Origin: a virus
Taxonomy: Duplodnaviria; Heunggongvirae; Uroviricota; Caudoviricetes
Length of the DNA stretch: 11,476 bases
Direction: 5' to 3' (one strand)
Virus record (IMG/VR): IMGVR_UViG_2609460354_000010
Span: 1 to 11,476 of that record
Part shown: one piece after another, positions 4,033 to 11,476 of the stretch
Position numbering within the stretch: position 1 is the stretch's first letter
Layout: the number at the start of each line of letters is the position of its first letter
The notes under the pieces: generated by a model
Told to the model about the DNA's origin: nothing
The model's input: the letters and a program-made list of their open reading frames with translations, nothing else
The model's database searches: none
Made by a program: the position numbers and the translations under genes

Positions 4033-4051
4033 ATGCTTTCCCCGCCTCGCC
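4033..4051 (-). other. cos site: P2/P4-type 19-nt cohesive end sequence (18/19 match)
   Basis: The minus strand reads GGCGAGGCGGGGAAAGCAT against the P2/P4 cohesive end GGCGAGGCGGGGAAAGCAC as I recall it. It sits between the cargo islet and psu, as expected for an integrated P4-like element. Confidence 0.75.
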
Positions 4052-4074
4052 CGCCCGCTTTGCGGGGCGGTTTT
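4051..4074 (+). terminator. GC-rich hairpin plus TTTT immediately next to cos
   Basis: CCGCCCGC-TTT-GCGGGGCGG followed by TTTT; it would stop plus-strand read-through from the cargo islet. Confidence 0.4.
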
Positions 4075-4153
4075 AATGCAGTTGCACTGACACGCTCAGA
4101 CCGCGCCGGGAATGGTGCGGTCTGCAGAAAATGAGGCAGGAAAACGCATGCAA

Positions 4154-4185
4154 AGCCATGCACCTTATCGATGCATGGCTTTTTT
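4154..4185. terminator. Hairpin with flanking T/A runs between cos and psu (candidate bidirectional terminator)
   Basis: AGCCATGCA (4154-4162) pairs with TGCATGGCT (4172-4180), followed by TTTTT on the plus strand; on the minus strand the hairpin is followed by TTTGCATGCGTTTT. The psu stop is at 4216. Confidence 0.5.
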
Positions 4186-4215
4186 CAGTAAAAACGGGCG
4201 GATTTTCGGGGAATT

Positions 4216-4788
4216 TTACACAGACTGACGTGATGCCAGTTGCGCACTTTTACGCGAAAAAATCATGTTCTGCGCAGGAGTGAATTTTTCACGGCTGTCA
4301 TCCACCGAAGCCGCGTCAGGCCTGAATCCGATGGCCGTTAAAATGTCGCTATCCTGTACGGAATAATTAATTTTTTCACCCTTCGCAAGCCAGGACAGAA
4401 GGGCTTCACGCAGGGCATCTGTGGCACGCTGTATGGCACAGTTTCGGGCAATGGCCGTCAGCTCACTGTAGCCCATCAGCTCCGGTGCCAGTGCCGCCGC
4501 CAGTGCTGTGCCGTGCTGCTGCATAAAATCATTCAGCCGGTCGCGGATGCTGATGTGCTGAACGGCTTCATGCGAACGAATATAACGACCGGCGGCCTGA
4601 TTCACCTGCCATTTTCTGACTTCGATAATATTGCGTAATTCGTCCAGGCGACTGACGTTTCTGCCTTCTCCTGACTGAAGCCGCAGATATTCCTGTTCGG
4701 CCGCTGCCAGCTCATTTTTGCGTTGCAGCCATGCTGCTTTGTTATTCTGACAGGTGTCAAAGGCCTGCTGTAAGGCTGTGCTTTCCAT
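4216..4788 (-). CDS. psu: Polarity suppression protein Psu (capsid decoration / Rho antagonist), 190 aa
   Basis: 190 aa, the same length as P4 Psu; the sequence (MESTALQQAFDTCQNNKAAWLQ...) matches P4 Psu as I recall it. It is the last gene of the sid-delta-psu operon. Confidence 0.92.
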   Translation of the reverse strand: MESTALQQAFDTCQNNKAAWLQRKNELAAAEQEYLRLQSGEGRNVSRLDELRNIIEVRKWQVNQAAGRYIRSHEAVQHISIRDRLNDFMQQHGTALAAALAPELMGYSELTAIARNCAIQRATDALREALLSWLAKGEKINYSVQDSDILTAIGFRPDAASVDDSREKFTPAQNMIFSRKSAQLASRQSV

Positions 4789-4861
4789 CGTTATCTCTTT
4801 CTCATCATGCTGAAGAATAAAAATACGGTGTGCGGCGACGGCCGGGGTTAACCGGCAGCCC

Positions 4862-5362
4862 TCATTCCAGACGCAGCGAATATGATTGTGTTTTTAACCG
4901 TACTGGCGGCAGTTCCTGTTTTTCATGCAGGCGTTCTGCCAGTTCGTCCGGTGTGACCGGGCGGACAATGAAGCGGTTGATGGTCTGAAGCGTTTTAAAC
5001 ACCAGACCACAGCCCGGATCCGTGCACACATAAAAACGTTCGGTGACTTCCTGAGACAGACGCCGCGATGTTCTTGACAGTGCAAGGCCTTTACATCTCC
5101 GACAACAATATCCGGTAACAAGCATTCTTTTCGGGCGTTTCATACTGCCGGAGGCAGAAGTCAGTGAATCGCGGTATCTCTGTTTGCCTGAAATGTATTC
5201 CATTCCTGAATCTTTACTGTCAGAGAAAAAGCTTTCACTCGCTTCAAATGTCGCAGAGCAATAAATATTCCGGCACTGTGCAATCATTATCTTGGTGCCA
5301 TCGTCCATGAAATGTGCGCGGCGGGTGTGAGCAACATGTCCACACGACGGGCAGTAAATCAT
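4862..5362 (-). CDS. delta: Delta late-gene transcriptional activator (Ogr-family zinc finger, duplicated), 166 aa
   Basis: Begins MIYCPSCGH...CRNIYCSATF (Ogr/Delta Cys4 motif) and a second Cys-rich repeat follows. 166 aa as in P4 Delta. The start overlaps the sid stop (ATGA). Confidence 0.92.
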   Translation of the reverse strand: MIYCPSCGHVAHTRRAHFMDDGTKIMIAQCRNIYCSATFEASESFFSDSKDSGMEYISGKQRYRDSLTSASGSMKRPKRMLVTGYCCRRCKGLALSRTSRRLSQEVTERFYVCTDPGCGLVFKTLQTINRFIVRPVTPDELAERLHEKQELPPVRLKTQSYSLRLE

Positions 5363-6093
5363 GACAGCAGTCCTCTGGCCTTAAGCTCTGCTCCCTGCTG
5401 GTCTATTTTGTCCTGCCACACCTTGCGCTGTGCCGGTGTGCCTGCCACCTCATAATCCATGTGCGGAAGTGTTGCCGCTGACAGTCCGGTCAGCCGGAGA
5501 ACCGGCTCGCCGGTGAGGCTGATTTGCATCTGTTTAATTTTCTGTTCCAGCGATGATTTCACCTGCTGCATGACAGCCTTTTCCGGTGCGACGTAGCCCT
5601 GATGGCCGGTGGCGTTGGCGAGCGGATTTTCCTGTACCAGAATGCTCAGATGCATTGCCCGGACAAGCGCCTCACAGGTTTCATTCAGGGCGTGTTCCAG
5701 CTCATGCTCTGCATACAGGCTCAGCAGGTGATGGTGTGCCTTCCGGTAGGCGGTGGCCGTGCTGTCACACGCCCCTTTCAGGCGTTCGCGTTCAAAATTC
5801 AGCACCACGGCCAGATTGTCATATTCCTGTACCAGCTCCCGGCGTGCCACGCGCTCAATGTGGCGCTGTTTCAGCTCGTCGCTCAGGACACCACCGGCTG
5901 CACGAAAGGCCGTGCGCCAGTCGTCAGCGTCGTTTCCGTCGGCCTGCGCCAGCGCATTTTTTTCCTGCTCTGCCCGTTCAATGGCCGTGACGGTCTCATC
6001 CATCAGGCGGGCGTTCTCAAGATGAGCGGCTCTGGCCTTTTCCAGTTGTGCCAGCGCGGGTTGCAGATATTCAGGGATGGTGTTGTCAGACAT
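5359..6093 (-). CDS. sid: Sid capsid size-determination (external scaffold) protein, 244 aa from the ATG at 6093
   Basis: The ORF track starts at a GTG (6111), but GAGGAG lies 7 nt upstream of the internal ATG (MSDNTIPEY...), giving 244 aa as in P4 Sid. The protein is coiled-coil rich. Confidence 0.9.
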   Translation of the reverse strand: MSDNTIPEYLQPALAQLEKARAAHLENARLMDETVTAIERAEQEKNALAQADGNDADDWRTAFRAAGGVLSDELKQRHIERVARRELVQEYDNLAVVLNFERERLKGACDSTATAYRKAHHHLLSLYAEHELEHALNETCEALVRAMHLSILVQENPLANATGHQGYVAPEKAVMQQVKSSLEQKIKQMQISLTGEPVLRLTGLSAATLPHMDYEVAGTPAQRKVWQDKIDQQGAELKARGLLS

Positions 6094-6127
6094 TTTCCGG
6101 CTCCTCGTCACTTCAGGTTAAGAAAAT

Positions 6128-6183
6128 TGTGACGTACACCGGACAACAACACGACGCATTGCAGATGTGCCAGCCCTGACACA
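6128..6183 (-). promoter_or_regulatory. Psid-like late promoter with two TGT-N12-ACA activator (Delta/Ogr) sites
   Basis: TGTgacgtacaccggACA (6128-6145) and TGTgccagccctgacACA (6166-6183), centres 38 bp apart. Placing them at about -18 and -55 predicts a minus-strand start near 6119, 26 nt upstream of the sid ATG. Confidence 0.6.
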
Positions 6184-6262
6184 GGAGACTCATCCTCAGA
6201 CCGGCAAGCCAGGAAAAGGTCGCAGGAAAAACCGGCTTACTGTTTGTTTTTTTATATTTTAC

Positions 6263-6366
6263 TGTTCACCTCTGTTCACCATAAGAAAAAAGATAAGTAA
6301 TACAGTAAGTTAAAGGGTGAACAATCGCAGTAATGACTGTTCACCGTCTGTTCACCACTGTTCACC
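6263..6366. repeat. Iteron cluster: six copies of TGTTCACC (five direct, one inverted); crr/ori-type alpha-binding repeats
   Basis: Copies at 6263-6270, 6273-6280, 6317-6324 (inverted, GGTGAACA), 6338-6345, 6349-6356 and 6359-6366, spaced about 10-11 bp within clusters. TGTTCACC is the type I iteron bound by P4 alpha. An AT-rich tract follows (6370-6470). Confidence 0.75.
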
Positions 6367-6524
6367 CGTTGATGGGCTTTTTGTGCTGTTTATTACTTTT
6401 TATTTTTATTAATTCACTGAAATAAATAAGAAAAAACAATTTGTATTTCACTATAATTTTTTCCAGCTCCTTCCAGAGCGTTTTAAAGCTATCTGGCGCT
6501 GATGTACAAAAAATACACAGCCAT

Positions 6525-6542
6525 TGTAAGGCTGCCGGAACA
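6525..6542 (+). promoter_or_regulatory. Candidate PLL-like late promoter activator site (TGT-N12-ACA) upstream of vis
   Basis: TGTaaggctgccggaACA, with a degenerate second site (TGC-N12-CAA, 6561-6578) 36 bp downstream. Predicted plus-strand start is near 6588; the vis ATG is at 6645. Confidence 0.4.
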
Positions 6543-6644
6543 AATCCCCCCTGTTGCGTCTGCCGAAAATATTCACAAAATAAAGCGCTACCCGAAGCCG
6601 GACGGACTTATCCGGTGCTGTATGGACATTAACGAGGTAGCCCG

Positions 6645-6911
6645 ATGCAAGCTGTTTTTTCTTCCCCGTCTCCCGCCCCTGTGACGCCACTGATGCCGCT
6701 GCCGGACATCACGCAGGAGCGTTTTTTACGTCTGCCGGAAGTGATGCACCTGTGCGGCCTGTCACGCTCGACCATCTACGAACTCATCCGTAAGGGGGAA
6801 TTTCCGCCGCAGGTGAGTCTTGGCGGTAAAAATGTGGCCTGGCTGCACTCTGAAGTCACCGCATGGATGGCCGGGCGCATTGCCGGACGCAAACGGGGGT
6901 ACGACGCGTGA
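6645..6911 (+). CDS. vis: AlpA/Vis-family HTH regulator (excisionase-like), 88 aa
   Basis: HTH core [42 protein letters not shown] is typical of the AlpA/Vis family. GAGG lies 7 nt upstream of the ATG. Its position between the late promoter and the immunity region matches P4 vis. Confidence 0.8.
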
Positions 6912-6946
6912 TGATACCCGTCCTGCAAAAACTCCCTTTTTCTGGC

Positions 6947-6976
6947 TTGCCTTTTTCCGGCATTTGCGGATATAGT
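6947..6976 (+). promoter_or_regulatory. Candidate sigma70 promoter (PLE-like): -35 TTGCCT, 18-bp spacer, -10 TATAGT
   Basis: Hexamers read from the sequence; located between vis and the immunity leader. Only a motif match, not verified. Confidence 0.3.
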
Positions 6977-7002
6977 TTTTCCGCTGCCGCAAAATCGGCA
7001 GC

Positions 7003-7288
7003 CGGGCGTGAGAACCCGAGCAATTCACAGGCGACATATGACGCGCCACGCGTCTTTTTTTGTGTCGCAATCAATGCCACAGAGCGCCAGATTATGGTGT
7101 GGTGTGTGGTCAGTCGTGCAGATGGCATTCCGTGCATCCTGCCCGCGTCCGCTCATTATGCCGCAGAGTCAATGGTAGCTCAGGCGGGGCAGCCTCCGGG
7201 CTGGCCGGTATCCTGTGAAGCCGGTATTCTCACCCCCGTCTGGGCTATCGCCATCGAGCGTGAGAACTCCGGCGATAGCGTTATTTGC
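7003..7288 (+). ncRNA. Candidate P4-type RNA-immunity leader region (seqA/seqB/seqC-like elements and terminator hairpins); exact RNA ends unknown
   Basis: Direct repeat GCGTGAGAAC at 7006-7015 and 7258-7267. A segment at 7220-7233 (GCCGGTATTCTCAC) is complementary to both in 12 of 14 positions. Hairpin plus T7 at 7040-7061 (GACGCG-CCA-CGCGTC-TTTTTTT). Hairpin GCTATCGCC/GGCGATAGC (7244-7279) followed by TTATTT. No convincing coding frame across 6912-7309. Confidence 0.3.
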
Positions 7289-7309
7289 TATTCACAGGAG
7301 GCTGCCATC

Positions 7310-7507
7310 ATGGCTACAACCCTTACCCCCTCACACCCTGAATTTGTCTTTGTGTTTGCGGCTGTCCGTCGCACAGACCGTCATCCCCGTATCTGTATGC
7401 TTCGCACCGTCGCCGGTGATGAACGCAGCGCCCGCCGTTCCCTTGTCCGTGACTATGTGCTCTCCCTTGCTGCCCGTCTGCCGGTGGTGGAGGTGTCCCG
7501 TGCGTAA
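7310..7507 (+). CDS. kil: Small protein, 65 aa; Kil-like by position and size
   Basis: AGGAGG lies 8 nt upstream of the ATG and third-position codon bias is strong. It is the first gene after the immunity leader. The name is assigned from P4 synteny and size only. Confidence 0.6.
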
Positions 7508-7787
7508 TAAAAAAGCCCCTCAGACCGTCTCAGCGCGTCATGACGCCCGTGAACACCTCAGCATTGAGGCTTACCATAAGCTCAACCGCGCCAGCGCCGT
7601 ATCCCAGTTTGTTGGGGGTGATTTGATTCACCGTGAACTCTCCGGCCTGCATCAGCTCTACATTCCGCATATTTTCAGTTACCTGAATGAAGATATTGAT
7701 TTTGTGCTGAATGAGCTGAAAGCCAAAGGCCTGTGCCGCGATTTTCTCGCCCAGCAGAAAGACCGGGGAGACAGGACGCATGTTTGA
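7500..7787 (+). CDS. epsilon: Small protein, 95 aa (GTG start); epsilon-like (antirepressor) by position
   Basis: GTG start 6 nt after GGTGGAGG, overlapping the kil stop; coding-like codon usage. The ORF track's longer 190-aa version has a low-complexity N-terminus that overlaps kil and the leader. The name is by synteny only. Confidence 0.55.
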
Positions 7788-8235
7788 TTTTCCCCAGCCC
7801 GGTGAGATTTACCGTTCTGCCGGTTTTCCCGATGTGGCCGTGGTCGGCATTCTGGAAGACGGTATTCCGTGGGAAATGCCGTACCGCTGCCCGGACATTG
7901 TCTGGAACCCGTACCGCCGTAAATTCAGTATCCTTGTGCGTATCCTCGCTGACGGACGCACCACAGACATCCCGCTGGGGCGTTTTCTGCGGGAATTTAC
8001 CTGTGACCGTCCTGACCTGTTTAAACGCAGCCCCGTAAACCGGCATGCGGTACTGAAAGAAATGGCCGGAGACCCGGAATTACAGAAATGGCGGGAAAAA
8101 TATCTGGATATTTACCCGCAGGCCCCTGTTCCGGTCAGCCGGGCGGCACCGGTGGCGCGGGAATGGCGGGAAATTCCCCGCACGGAGCCTGACCCGGAAA
8201 TCACCCCGGATAACAGTTACCGCAATTATCTGTAA
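7780..8235 (+). CDS. Conserved hypothetical protein, 151 aa (P4 orf151-like)
   Basis: The ATG overlaps the upstream stop (ATGTTTGA), indicating translational coupling. Size and position match P4 orf151 as I recall it. Confidence 0.7.
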   Translation: MFDFPQPGEIYRSAGFPDVAVVGILEDGIPWEMPYRCPDIVWNPYRRKFSILVRILADGRTTDIPLGRFLREFTCDRPDLFKRSPVNRHAVLKEMAGDPELQKWREKYLDIYPQAPVPVSRAAPVAREWREIPRTEPDPEITPDNSYRNYL

Positions 8236-8370
8236 TTAAAAAACGACACCCGAAAAATTAAATGTGCGTATTCGCGCAGGGATACGCACGTCTTCAGGAG
8301 ACGCAGATATGCCTTATCAGTTAATGCAACCGGCACGGAATGCAGTCATCTGTCACAGGGAGGAAAGCAA

Positions 8371-8691
8371 ATGAAAACCCCCTTACCGCCCGTCTTACGC
8401 GCAGCCCTTTACCGTCGCGCTGTCGCCTGTGCCTGGCTGACCGTGTGCGAACGTCAGCACCGCTACCCGCATCTCACCCTTGAATCACTGGAGGCGGCCA
8501 TCGCCGCTGAGCTGGAAGGCTTTTATCTGCGCCAGCACGGTGAGGAAAAAGGGCGTCAGATAGCCTGTGCCCTGCTGGAAGATTTAATGGAATCCGGCCC
8601 CCTGAAGGCCGCGCCGTCGCTGTCCTTTCTCGGGCTGGTTGTGATGGATGAACTCTGTGCCCGTCACATAAAAGCGCCGGTACTGCACTGA
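8371..8691 (+). CDS. cnr: 106-aa protein immediately upstream of alpha; Cnr-like (copy number regulation)
   Basis: GGAGG-containing RBS before the ATG; 106 aa, directly preceding alpha as for P4 cnr (orf106) as I recall it. Confidence 0.65.
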
Positions 8692-8705
8692 AGGAGAACA
8701 ACACC

Positions 8706-11039
8706 ATGAAAATGAACGTAACCGCCACCGTCAGCCATGCACTCGGCCACTGGCCGCGTATTCTCCCGGCGCTGGGGATTCAGGTGCTGAAAAACCGTCA
8801 TCAGCCCTGTCCGGTCTGTGGCGGGAGTGACCGCTTCCGTTTTGATGACAGGGAGGGGCGCGGCACCTGGTACTGCAATCAGTGTGGTGCCGGTGACGGC
8901 CTGAAACTGGTTGAAAAGGTGTTTGGTGTTTCCCCGTCCGACGCGGCCACAAAGGTGGCTGCCGTGACCGGCAGTCTGCCCCCGGCTGACCCGGCAGTGA
9001 CGGCCGCCGCCGTTGCTGAAACAGAAGCCGCCCGGAAGAACGCCGCCGCACTGGCACAAACCCTGATGGCGAAAACCCGTCCCGGAACCGGTAACGCCTA
9101 CCTGACCCGCAAGGGCTTTCCCGGCCGGGAATGCCGGATGCTGACCGGCACACACAGAGCCGGTGGCGTGAGCTGGCGCGCCGGTGACCTTGTGGTGCCA
9201 CTGTATGACGACAGCGGCGAACTGGTTAACCTTCAGTTAATCAGTGCTGACGGCCGTAAGCGCACCCTGAAAGGCGGACAGGTCAGGGGCACCTGTCACA
9301 TCCTTGAAGGACAGAATCAGGCCGGAAAACGTCTGTGGATAGCGGAGGGATACGCGACCGCACTTACCGTACATCACCTGACCGGTGAAACGGTGATGGT
9401 GGCGCTTTCTTCCGTGAACCTCCTTTCTCTGGCCAGCCTTGCCCGGCAGAAGCATCCGGCCTGTCAGATTGTCCTTGCCGCAGACCGTGACCTCAGCGGT
9501 GACGGCCAGAAAAAAGCCGCCGCAGCCGCAGATGCGTGTGAGGGTGTTGTTGCCCTGCCGCCGGTCTTCGGTGACTGGAATGATGCCTTCACGCAGTACG
9601 GCGGGGAAGCCACCCGTAAGGCCATTTATGATGCCATCCGGCCACCGGCTGAAAGCCCGTTCGACACCATGAGCGAAGCGGAGTTTTCCGCCATGAGTAC
9701 CAGCGAAAAGGCCATGCGTATCTATGAGCATTACGGCGAGGCGCTCGCGGTCGATGCCAACGGCCAGCTTCTGTCCCGCTATGAAAATGGTGTCTGGAAG
9801 GTGCTGCCGCCACAGGACTTTGCCCGGGATGTGGCCGGGCTGTTTCAGCGGCTGCGTGCGCCGTTCTCCTCCGGGAAGGTGGCCTCCGTGGTGGACACCC
9901 TGAAGCTGATTATTCCGCAGCAGGAAGCCCCCTCCCGCCGCCTGATTGGCTTTCGTAACGGCGTGCTCGACACGCAGAACGGCACGTTCCACCCGCACAG
10001 TCCGTCACACTGGATGCGCACCCTGTGCGATGTGGATTTCACCCCGCCGGTGGAAGGGGAAACGCTGGAAACCCACGCCCCCGCGTTCTGGCGCTGGCTT
10101 GACCGTGCCGCCGGTGGCCGTGCGGAAAAACGCGACGTGATTCTGGCCGCACTGTTTATGGTGCTGGCAAACCGCTACGACTGGCAGCTCTTTCTGGAGG
10201 TGACCGGTCCCGGCGGCAGCGGCAAAAGTATCATGGCCGAAATAGCCACCCTGCTGGCCGGTGAGGATAACGCCACGTCGGCCACCATCGAGACGCTGGA
10301 ATCCCCGCGTGAACGTGCCGCGTTAACTGGCTTCTCACTGATACGCCTGCCGGACCAGGAAAAATGGAGCGGCGACGGAGCCGGACTCAAGGCCATCACC
10401 GGCGGCGATGCAGTGTCCGTTGACCCGAAATACCGGGATGCGTACTCCACGCACATCCCGGCGGTGATTCTGGCCGTGAACAATAACCCGATGCGCTTCA
10501 CCGACCGCAGCGGCGGCGTGTCACGCCGGCGGGTGATTATTCACTTCCCGGAACAGATAGCCCCGCAGGAGCGCGACCCGCAGCTTAAGGACAAAATCAC
10601 CCGCGAGCTGGCGGTCATCGTGCGTCACCTGATGCAGAAATTCAGCGACCCGATGCTCGCCCGGTCACTGCTTCAGTCCCAGCAAAACTCAGACGAGGCG
10701 CTGAACATCAAACGGGATGCCGACCCGACGTTTGATTTTATCGGCTATCTGGAAACCCTGCCGCAGACCAGCGGCATGTATATGGGGAACGCCAGTATCA
10801 TCCCGCGTAATTACCGTAAATACCTCTATCACGCCTATCTGGCCTACATGGAGGCAAACGGCTACCGGAATGTACTCAGTCTGAAAATGTTCGGGCTGGG
10901 GCTGCCGGTGATGCTGAAGGAATACGGACTGAATTACGAGAAGCGCCATACCAAACAGGGGATACAGACCAACCTGACGCTGAAAGAGGAAAGCTACGGC
11001 GACTGGCTGCGTATTACCGTGAAGGAGATCGGTGAGTAA
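8706..11039 (+). CDS. alpha: Alpha replication protein (primase-helicase with C-terminal origin-binding domain), 777 aa
   Basis: 777 aa, as for P4 alpha. N-terminal zinc-binding CPVCGG...CNQCGAG (primase zinc finger), Walker A GPGGSGKS (helicase), AAGGAG RBS. The TGTTCACC iterons it would bind are at 6263-6366. Confidence 0.95.
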   Translation: MKMNVTATVSHALGHWPRILPALGIQVLKNRHQPCPVCGGSDRFRFDDREGRGTWYCNQCGAGDGLKLVEKVFGVSPSDAATKVAAVTGSLPPADPAVTAAAVAETEAARKNAAALAQTLMAKTRPGTGNAYLTRKGFPGRECRMLTGTHRAGGVSWRAGDLVVPLYDDSGELVNLQLISADGRKRTLKGGQVRGTCHILEGQNQAGKRLWIAEGYATALTVHHLTGETVMVALSSVNLLSLASLARQKHPACQIVLAADRDLSGDGQKKAAAAADACEGVVALPPVFGDWNDAFTQYGGEATRKAIYDAIRPPAESPFDTMSEAEFSAMSTSEKAMRIYEHYGEALAVDANGQLLSRYENGVWKVLPPQDFARDVAGLFQRLRAPFSSGKVASVVDTLKLIIPQQEAPSRRLIGFRNGVLDTQNGTFHPHSPSHWMRTLCDVDFTPPVEGETLETHAPAFWRWLDRAAGGRAEKRDVILAALFMVLANRYDWQLFLEVTGPGGSGKSIMAEIATLLAGEDNATSATIETLESPRERAALTGFSLIRLPDQEKWSGDGAGLKAITGGDAVSVDPKYRDAYSTHIPAVILAVNNNPMRFTDRSGGVSRRRVIIHFPEQIAPQERDPQLKDKITRELAVIVRHLMQKFSDPMLARSLLQSQQNSDEALNIKRDADPTFDFIGYLETLPQTSGMYMGNASIIPRNYRKYLYHAYLAYMEANGYRNVLSLKMFGLGLPVMLKEYGLNYEKRHTKQGIQTNLTLKEESYGDWLRITVKEIGE

Positions 11040-11083
11040 CGGCGTTTTTCAAGGTAGTTGTCGCCTTTTGTAATAAAATTACG

Positions 11084-11476
11084 TTATGCAGCCTCTTTTT
11101 CTGGATTCAGGTAGACTTCTGATATGTAGTCCCAGTTACGTAGATGCTTTCCCCAACGTTCAGGATGCTGTTCGCGTGCCAGCTGGTATACTGCTTTTCT
11201 GGCCGCCAGTATTTTCATATCATTACCTTGATGACGCTCGGCTGGCGTGACGTATTTGATCCCGCTGTGCTTATGTTCAAAGTTGTACCAGTTTACAAAA
11301 CGGTTTACCCATATTCTGGCATCATTAATAGTGCGAAAACCGTTCTCAGGCCACCAGGGACAATATTTGAGAGTCCGGAACAAAGATTCTGAGTAAGGAT
11401 TATCATTGCTGACTCTTGGCCGGGAATAAGAACTTAGCACACCAAGCGCATACATTTTCGCCAACAACGTGTAACT
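11084..11476 (-). CDS. IS3-family DDE transposase (OrfB), C-terminal part; gene continues beyond the window edge
   Basis: DNPYSESLFRTLK resembles the IS3-family catalytic-Glu region, with a C-terminal ...YVTPAE... tail. The reading frame is open to the window end. GC content differs from the satellite backbone. Confidence 0.8.
   Translation of the reverse strand, partial: SYTLLAKMYALGVLSSYSRPRVSNDNPYSESLFRTLKYCPWWPENGFRTINDARIWVNRFVNWYNFEHKHSGIKYVTPAERHQGNDMKILAARKAVYQLAREQHPERWGKHLRNWDYISEVYLNPEKEAA

Follow-up and report, generated by a model that had tools for sequence, protein, structure and literature searches.

Organization of the satellite element

The stretch of DNA analysed here, to which we refer as the window, comprises 11,476 bases. 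Its genes follow the order psu, delta and sid (leftward) and then orf88/vis, the immunity region, epsilon, orf151, ORF106 and alpha (rightward), and its left 4 kb are not P4-like. The genes and RNAs on which the analysis draws are listed below.

40-402: ssrA (tmRNA), the integration site
587-1783: tyrosine integrase of 398 aa, unlike the 440-aa integrase of P4
1784-3548, plus strand: Septu anti-phage pair PtuA/PtuB, between the integrase and cos, in place of gop-beta-cII of P4
3596-3832, minus strand: small DUF2188 protein, matching the PADLOC candidate defence family PDC-S16 (E = 7e-12), between Septu and cos
5359-6093, minus strand: sid, 244 aa, at the head of the leftward late operon sid-delta-psu
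6645-6911, plus strand: orf88/vis, AlpA-family HTH protein, 87/88 identical to P4, at the head of the rightward operon
7168-7255: P4-type immunity RNA (C4 family; C4/CI), from Rfam
8371-8691, plus strand: ORF106 (cnr in the P4 literature), DUF5375, from the P4 annotation and gene match
8706-11039, plus strand: alpha primase-helicase-origin-binding protein, 777 aa, residues 1-768 P4-like and the last 9 from an IS
11008-11476, minus strand: end of an IS3-family element with terminus TGCGTATTACC..., rve_3, the transposase C-terminus occupying 11084-11476

PtuA (391 aa) and the HNH nuclease PtuB (198 aa) were recognised with E values of 5e-162 and 8e-86, respectively, and the cos site is intact (about 4033-4051). 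The element is best described as a P4-type satellite prophage at ssrA, with defence cargo in the usual variable position. The pairing of the ssrA site with the 398-aa integrase is an instance of the integrase and attachment-site swapping that occurs among P4-like satellites. Just upstream of the C4 RNA, Rfam also called isrK (an Hfq-binding sRNA) and c4-a1b1 targets, at 6983-7060 and 6970-7022, and both calls are consistent with a P4 immunity region.

The iteron array between sid and orf88/vis

A cluster of TGTTCACC octamers lies in the 551-bp gap between the divergently oriented sid and orf88/vis genes. Its parts and the AT-rich DNA beside it are given below together with their P4 equivalents and, where available, the mean column conservation among 29 distinct origins, taken from different genera and aligned.

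6243-6366: conserved ori core of 124 bp, composed of a T-rich leader, six iterons and the AT spacer; conservation 0.85-0.98
6243-6262: T-rich leader; conservation 0.85
6263-6270, plus strand: type I iteron 1, TGTTCACC; P4 9406-9413; conservation 0.87
6273-6280, plus strand: type I iteron 2; P4 9396-9403; conservation 0.94
6281-6315: AT-rich spacer within the iteron array, 35 bp; GC 0.20; sequence conservation 0.87
6316-6323, minus strand: type I iteron 3, inverted; P4 9353-9360; conservation 0.98
6338-6345, plus strand: type I iteron 4; P4 9331-9338; conservation 0.98
6349-6356, plus strand: type I iteron 5; P4 9320-9327; conservation 0.94
6359-6366, plus strand: type I iteron 6; P4 9310-9317; conservation 0.97
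6367-6470: AT-rich tract right of the iterons; GC 0.25, and 0.16 over 6380-6460

Six exact copies of TGTTCACC were found in the window, five on the plus strand and one on the minus strand, spanning 104 bp (6263-6366); a search of both strands of the whole 11,476-base window returned no exact copy outside this span. Dinucleotide-preserving shuffles contained 0.39 copies on average and three at most, and none of them (0/200) reached six, which places the octamer frequency above chance. When one mismatch was allowed, 16 sites were obtained in the window against 8.8 expected; the excess corresponds to the six exact copies, and the 10 one-mismatch sites beyond the array are dispersed and at background level. 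The start-to-start distances between consecutive iterons are 10, 43, 22, 11 and 10 bp. They are best fitted by a period of 10.74 bp with a resultant length R of 0.98, and therefore the six iterons lie on one face of the helix. Iterons 3 and 4 form an inverted pair (6316-6345) that makes a hairpin-like dyad with an 11-bp stem. The longest direct repeat within 6100-6700 measured 19 nt, and no 120-bp repeat was found there. GC content is 0.50 over the window, compared with 0.25 over 6367-6470 and 0.16 over 6380-6460. The initial annotation had described five direct octamers and one inverted octamer at roughly helical spacing followed by an AT-rich tract of ~100 bp, and the exact count, the fitted period and the GC content bear out each part of this description. 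In a full-text literature search with TGTTCACC, all matches were unrelated primer sequences.

Correspondence with the replication origin of P4

Window positions 4052-11010 aligned to positions 11624-4665 of the P4 genome (X51522) in a single match of 98.2% identity. The depositors of that record annotated a rep_origin that extends from 9086 to 9809 and, within it, six 'ori type 1 repeats' (9310-9413); a base-by-base alignment showed that the window iterons are identical in order, orientation and spacing to these repeats on the P4 minus strand. The earlier proposal that the octamer is the P4 iteron is upheld by this one-to-one match to the type 1 (type I) repeats. Both regions are collinear, with 96% identity over 561 bp and ~98% over the 124-bp core, where the only two mismatches fall in the 35-bp spacer. 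Several substitutions distinguish the AT tract from that of P4, and the annotated rep_origin of P4 also takes in the equivalent of this tract (6367-6470).

We conclude that the cluster at 6263-6366 and its surroundings are almost certainly the ori (ori1) of a P4-type satellite prophage, serving vegetative as well as plasmid replication. Sequence and annotation of the P4 origin, iterons included, date from the 1980s, and the copy in the window is an ordinary, already known one.

Conservation of the origin among relatives

The family set consisted of 80 alpha loci from species-representative genomes of other species, with alpha proteins 57-100% identical; the genera represented include Enterobacter, Citrobacter, Klebsiella, Raoultella, Kluyvera, Edwardsiella, Pantoea, Pectobacterium and Serratia. 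In these relatives, exact copies of TGTTCACC gather at two places, 1.6-2.6 kb upstream of the alpha gene and 80-340 bp beyond its end. Because exact-octamer counts drop in relatives whose alpha is 57-75% identical, the most clustered 7-mer of each locus of ~12 kb was also determined de novo, with no motif supplied. For alpha at least 79% identical, the top 7-mer in most loci was a sub-word of TGTTCACC (TGTTCAC, CTGTTCA or GTTCACC), and loci with such a sub-word on top had the upstream cluster (1.6-2.6 kb from alpha) in all cases and the downstream cluster (80-350 bp from alpha) in most. Two distant elements carry a variant word at both of their own sites (CTTCACC in L078 and ACTGTTC in L083), as would be expected if a single protein reads both. 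In many loci with alpha below 75% identity, the most clustered word was a palindrome or tandem repeat of no relation to the octamer, and the test did not single out an iteron.

Two further observations were made in this set. In six loci (L013, L030, L032, L035, L038 and L058) the crr-like cluster lies 0.8-3 kb past alpha and not ~80 bp from it, therefore insertions between alpha and crr occur elsewhere too; L032 and L030 each seem to have two clusters on the downstream side. Many relatives (e.g., L036, L047, L051 and L054) have a single inverted TGTTCACC or TGTTCAC inside alpha, at about nt 1766-1770, which is absent from both the window and P4 and may simply reflect a conserved codon string.

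Across the 29 aligned origins, column conservation is highest in the six iterons (0.87-0.98) and falls abruptly to 0.5-0.6 right after iteron 6 (6366), with values of 0.52 for 6367-6385, 0.61 for the AT tract at 6386-6460 and 0.55 beyond 6460. The constrained unit is therefore 6243-6366, and the AT tract of ~100 bp keeps its composition, and not its sequence, in the relatives. Deletion mapping by Tocchetti and co-workers in 1999 is reported to have narrowed ori1 down to ~123 bp, with six iterons and an AT-rich region of 35 bp, which would coincide with the block 6243-6366. Of 5426 complete E. coli genomes, 1051 (~19%) carry the same origin segment, always on the chromosome, and it was unannotated in every genome among the matches listed. 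The core at 6243-6366 provides a comparative definition that can be used for annotating this origin in E. coli genomes.

An IS3-family insertion at the position expected for crr

The crr of P4 is a separate feature (X51522 4291-4590), directly 3' of the alpha terminator and adjoining attP, and is made up of a pair of 120-bp direct repeats with ~60 bp between them; each repeat holds several iterons, which occur in both orientations. A P4-engineering preprint (2026) describes crr at the int/att side of the non-essential region as the 'cis required region for replication'. In the window, codon 768 of alpha is followed by an IS3-family insertion (junction 11008/11011), and the alpha terminator is lost. 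The sequence comes from the draft contig JNPG01000055.1 (GCA_000703745.1), whose last base is window base 11476, inside the IS, so that the contig ends within the IS at the expected start of crr and the window holds no crr partner in cis. The initial annotation had noted that no second iteron cluster, named there as ori1, is seen in the window; none was indeed found, but the cluster that is absent is crr and not ori1. It is out of sight because of the IS insertion and the draft-contig end at the place where crr normally follows, and its absence from the window does not reflect the biology of the element.

Copies of the IS that are 100% identical and have the same terminus are located at unrelated E. 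coli sites, where they are annotated as IS3 family transposase. An exact-protein match showed that the fused alpha, with its 9 codons read from the IS, is on record on two contigs, and the alpha/IS junction was found in none of the 5426 complete E. coli genomes, in which every long match stops at 11010. The closest long match among these genomes is a sibling prophage in strain WGS1363 (L003), 99.6% identical, which has the same ori and then a normal alpha C-terminus, the terminator, a crr at 14095-14366 and chromosomal glaH. Its crr consists of two repeat units with 5 exact octamers and 5 single-mismatch copies. The lineage thus has a crr, which in the window copy is displaced or lost. The clean IS terminus, common to the other copies, speaks more for a simple insertion, which would leave crr ~1.3 kb farther away, than for a deletion. 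Under a simple insertion the other IS end would be followed by CCAAAATGTGACG..., crr and glaH.

The domains of alpha are a Zn ribbon, Toprim, D5_N, an SF3 helicase and an origin-binding domain in which 98 of 100 residues are identical to those of the crystallised domain (PDB 1KA8), up to the residues GDWL. After GDWL, at codon 768, RITVKEIGE replaces PKCDDPTTA of P4. The DNA-binding domain of alpha is essentially intact, and the origin is intact in sequence.

Such an origin could nevertheless be orphaned, the IS3 element having crippled the replicon and the iterons surviving as a relic in a domesticated defence island. This outcome is suggested by the IS3 terminus after codon 768 with its nine foreign codons and the lost alpha terminator, by the lack of crr within the window and the contig, and by the Septu pair, which could be selected on its own. 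Nevertheless, we regard it as unlikely, albeit worth serious attention, in view of the DNA-binding domain, of whose 100 crystallised residues 98 are untouched, the clean IS terminus that favours insertion over deletion, and the remaining P4 genes and cos, which are intact and 97-99% identical to P4. Moreover, 4.5 kb naturally separate ori from crr, and six relatives have crr 0.8-3 kb from alpha, therefore distance alone should not matter. Since the DNA-binding domain is essentially intact, the IS terminus is clean and ori and crr act over a natural distance of 4.5 kb, the replicon is probably alive rather than dead, with a real but clearly smaller chance that it is crippled.

The stretch equivalent to the type 2 repeats

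One segment of the origin region differs from P4 as a block:

6459-6505: patch replacing the three 'ori type 2 repeats' of P4, with flanks nearly identical to P4

The P4 'ori type 2 repeats' are three 10-bp repeats at P4 9176-9205. They were not found in the window patch, which contains only two copies of TTCCAG, a number not above chance. Relatives in the 29-origin alignment do not share a conserved sequence here, and therefore this array was not treated as a defining feature of the P4 ori.

The relatives compared at this position were L035, L026, L043, L022, L013, L017 and L039. Many relatives carry there 4-8 copies of a lineage-specific hexamer at a strict spacing of 10-11 bp: TTGTCA is present eight times in L035 and seven times in L026, and GGCCAA five to six times in L043 and L022, with no more than 4-5 copies in shuffled sequences. 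Vis was considered as the protein that binds the type 2 patch and rejected: it is 87/88 identical to P4 yet the patch differs, without co-variation. The stretch may be a lineage-specific protein-binding array of which the window copy is a natural variant lacking the array, a proposal that we hold to be doubtful. If true, an array at this position could set the specificity of the origin or of the late promoters independently of alpha.

Promoter context and other readings of the cluster

Candidate promoter elements flank the iterons on both sides:

6128-6183: two TGT-N12-ACA dyads on the sid side, starting at 6128 and 6166
6525-6542: TGT-N12-ACA dyad on the orf88/vis side, where an activator of the rightward late promoter may bind

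TGT-N12-ACA is the Ogr/Delta-type activator motif of P2/P4 late promoters. Three of its four matches in the window fall in the sid-orf88 gap, flanking the iterons (6128, 6166 and 6525), where about 0.12 would be expected by chance when the whole-window shuffle mean of 2.53 is scaled by length. An older P4 record (X02534) gives the -10 sequence of the leftward transcript, equivalent to window 6175-6181. No sigma-70 consensus promoter was detected in 6050-6700, as expected for activator-dependent promoters, for which such a scan is uninformative. The placement of the array between divergent late promoters, also proposed in the initial annotation, is reasonable in the light of the dyads on both sides and the divergent genes.

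This setting raises the question of whether the iterons are mainly a transcriptional operator, at which alpha, bound between the late promoters, regulates sid and orf88 instead of, or besides, acting in replication. Although the activator-type dyads on either side of the cluster (6128/6166 and 6525) and the hairpin-like inverted pair with its 11-bp stem (6316-6345) would suit an operator, the same octamers occur at crr without promoter context and the P4 depositors annotated the region as origin, and we consider this role very improbable. A secondary regulatory effect may exist, but it would not replace the origin role.

The label that the cluster had received at first, that of a crr-type auxiliary site cooperating with an origin elsewhere, finds an echo in the same TGTTCACC octamers of the P4 crr, but it is scarcely credible and was rejected on position (P4 crr lies 3' of alpha beside att, the cluster between sid and orf88), on repeat structure (two 120-bp direct repeats in P4 crr, a longest direct repeat of 19 nt here) and on homology (collinear with the P4 rep_origin, ~98% identical, iteron for iteron), while siblings and most relatives have a separate crr-like cluster after alpha. 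From that overall reading the P4 type I iteron, the sid/orf88 location and the lack of a second cluster stand, and the names have to be corrected: the cluster in the window is ori, and the one out of view is crr.

Proposed mechanism of initiation at ori

The alpha protein of P4 binds octamers at ori and crr, two sites that cooperate in cis, and it unwinds and primes DNA without the host proteins DnaA, DnaB and DnaG. ORF106 (8371-8691) we take to be Cnr, which limits copy number. The element in the window encodes its own cognate initiator with a predicted iteron-binding winged-helix domain; for alpha as cognate initiator we drew on the title of Ziegelin et al. (1993; cited in PMC8628076). In the proposed mechanism, the C-terminal winged-helix domain of alpha would recognise the TGTTCACC octamers, and the six iterons (6263-6366), all facing the same side of the helix, would bring alpha together on the DNA. 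The adjacent AT-rich DNA would be the likely site of strand opening, helicase loading and self-priming. Firing would also need crr in cis, ~4.5 kb away just past alpha, as in P4, and Cnr (ORF106) would control copy number. Alpha binding, unwinding, the ori-crr interaction and control by Cnr are inferred from published work on P4.

Comparison with known systems

The P4 ori (X51522 / NC_001609) resembles that of the window in its location between sid and orf88, in its succession of two direct iterons, a 35-bp AT spacer, one inverted iteron and three direct iterons, in having the same cognate alpha gene, and in the distance of the cluster from alpha (~2.3 kb upstream). It differs in a patch of ~45 bp, in which the three type 2 repeats of P4 are replaced in the window. 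The elements themselves differ in that P4 integrates at leuX and carries gop-beta-cII, whereas the window element lies at ssrA, has a different integrase and carries Septu. The P4 crr has the TGTTCACC octamer in common with the window cluster, hence the octamer does not discriminate between ori and crr, and its copies at crr would be recognised by the same protein as the window iterons. Unlike the window cluster, crr lies 3' of alpha by attP and has paired 120-bp repeats.

Iteron origins in general combine short, helically phased repeats with an element-encoded initiator and adjoining AT-rich DNA (PMC2777425). This iteron logic is shared by the P4-type ori with the origins of plasmids and of other phage satellites such as SaPI/PICI elements (ori next to pri-rep), although the P4 type differs from other iteron origins in being bipartite, with ori and a distant crr. 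The P4 initiator is a single primase-helicase-winged-helix polypeptide, in contrast to a Rep protein that recruits the host DnaB and DnaG.
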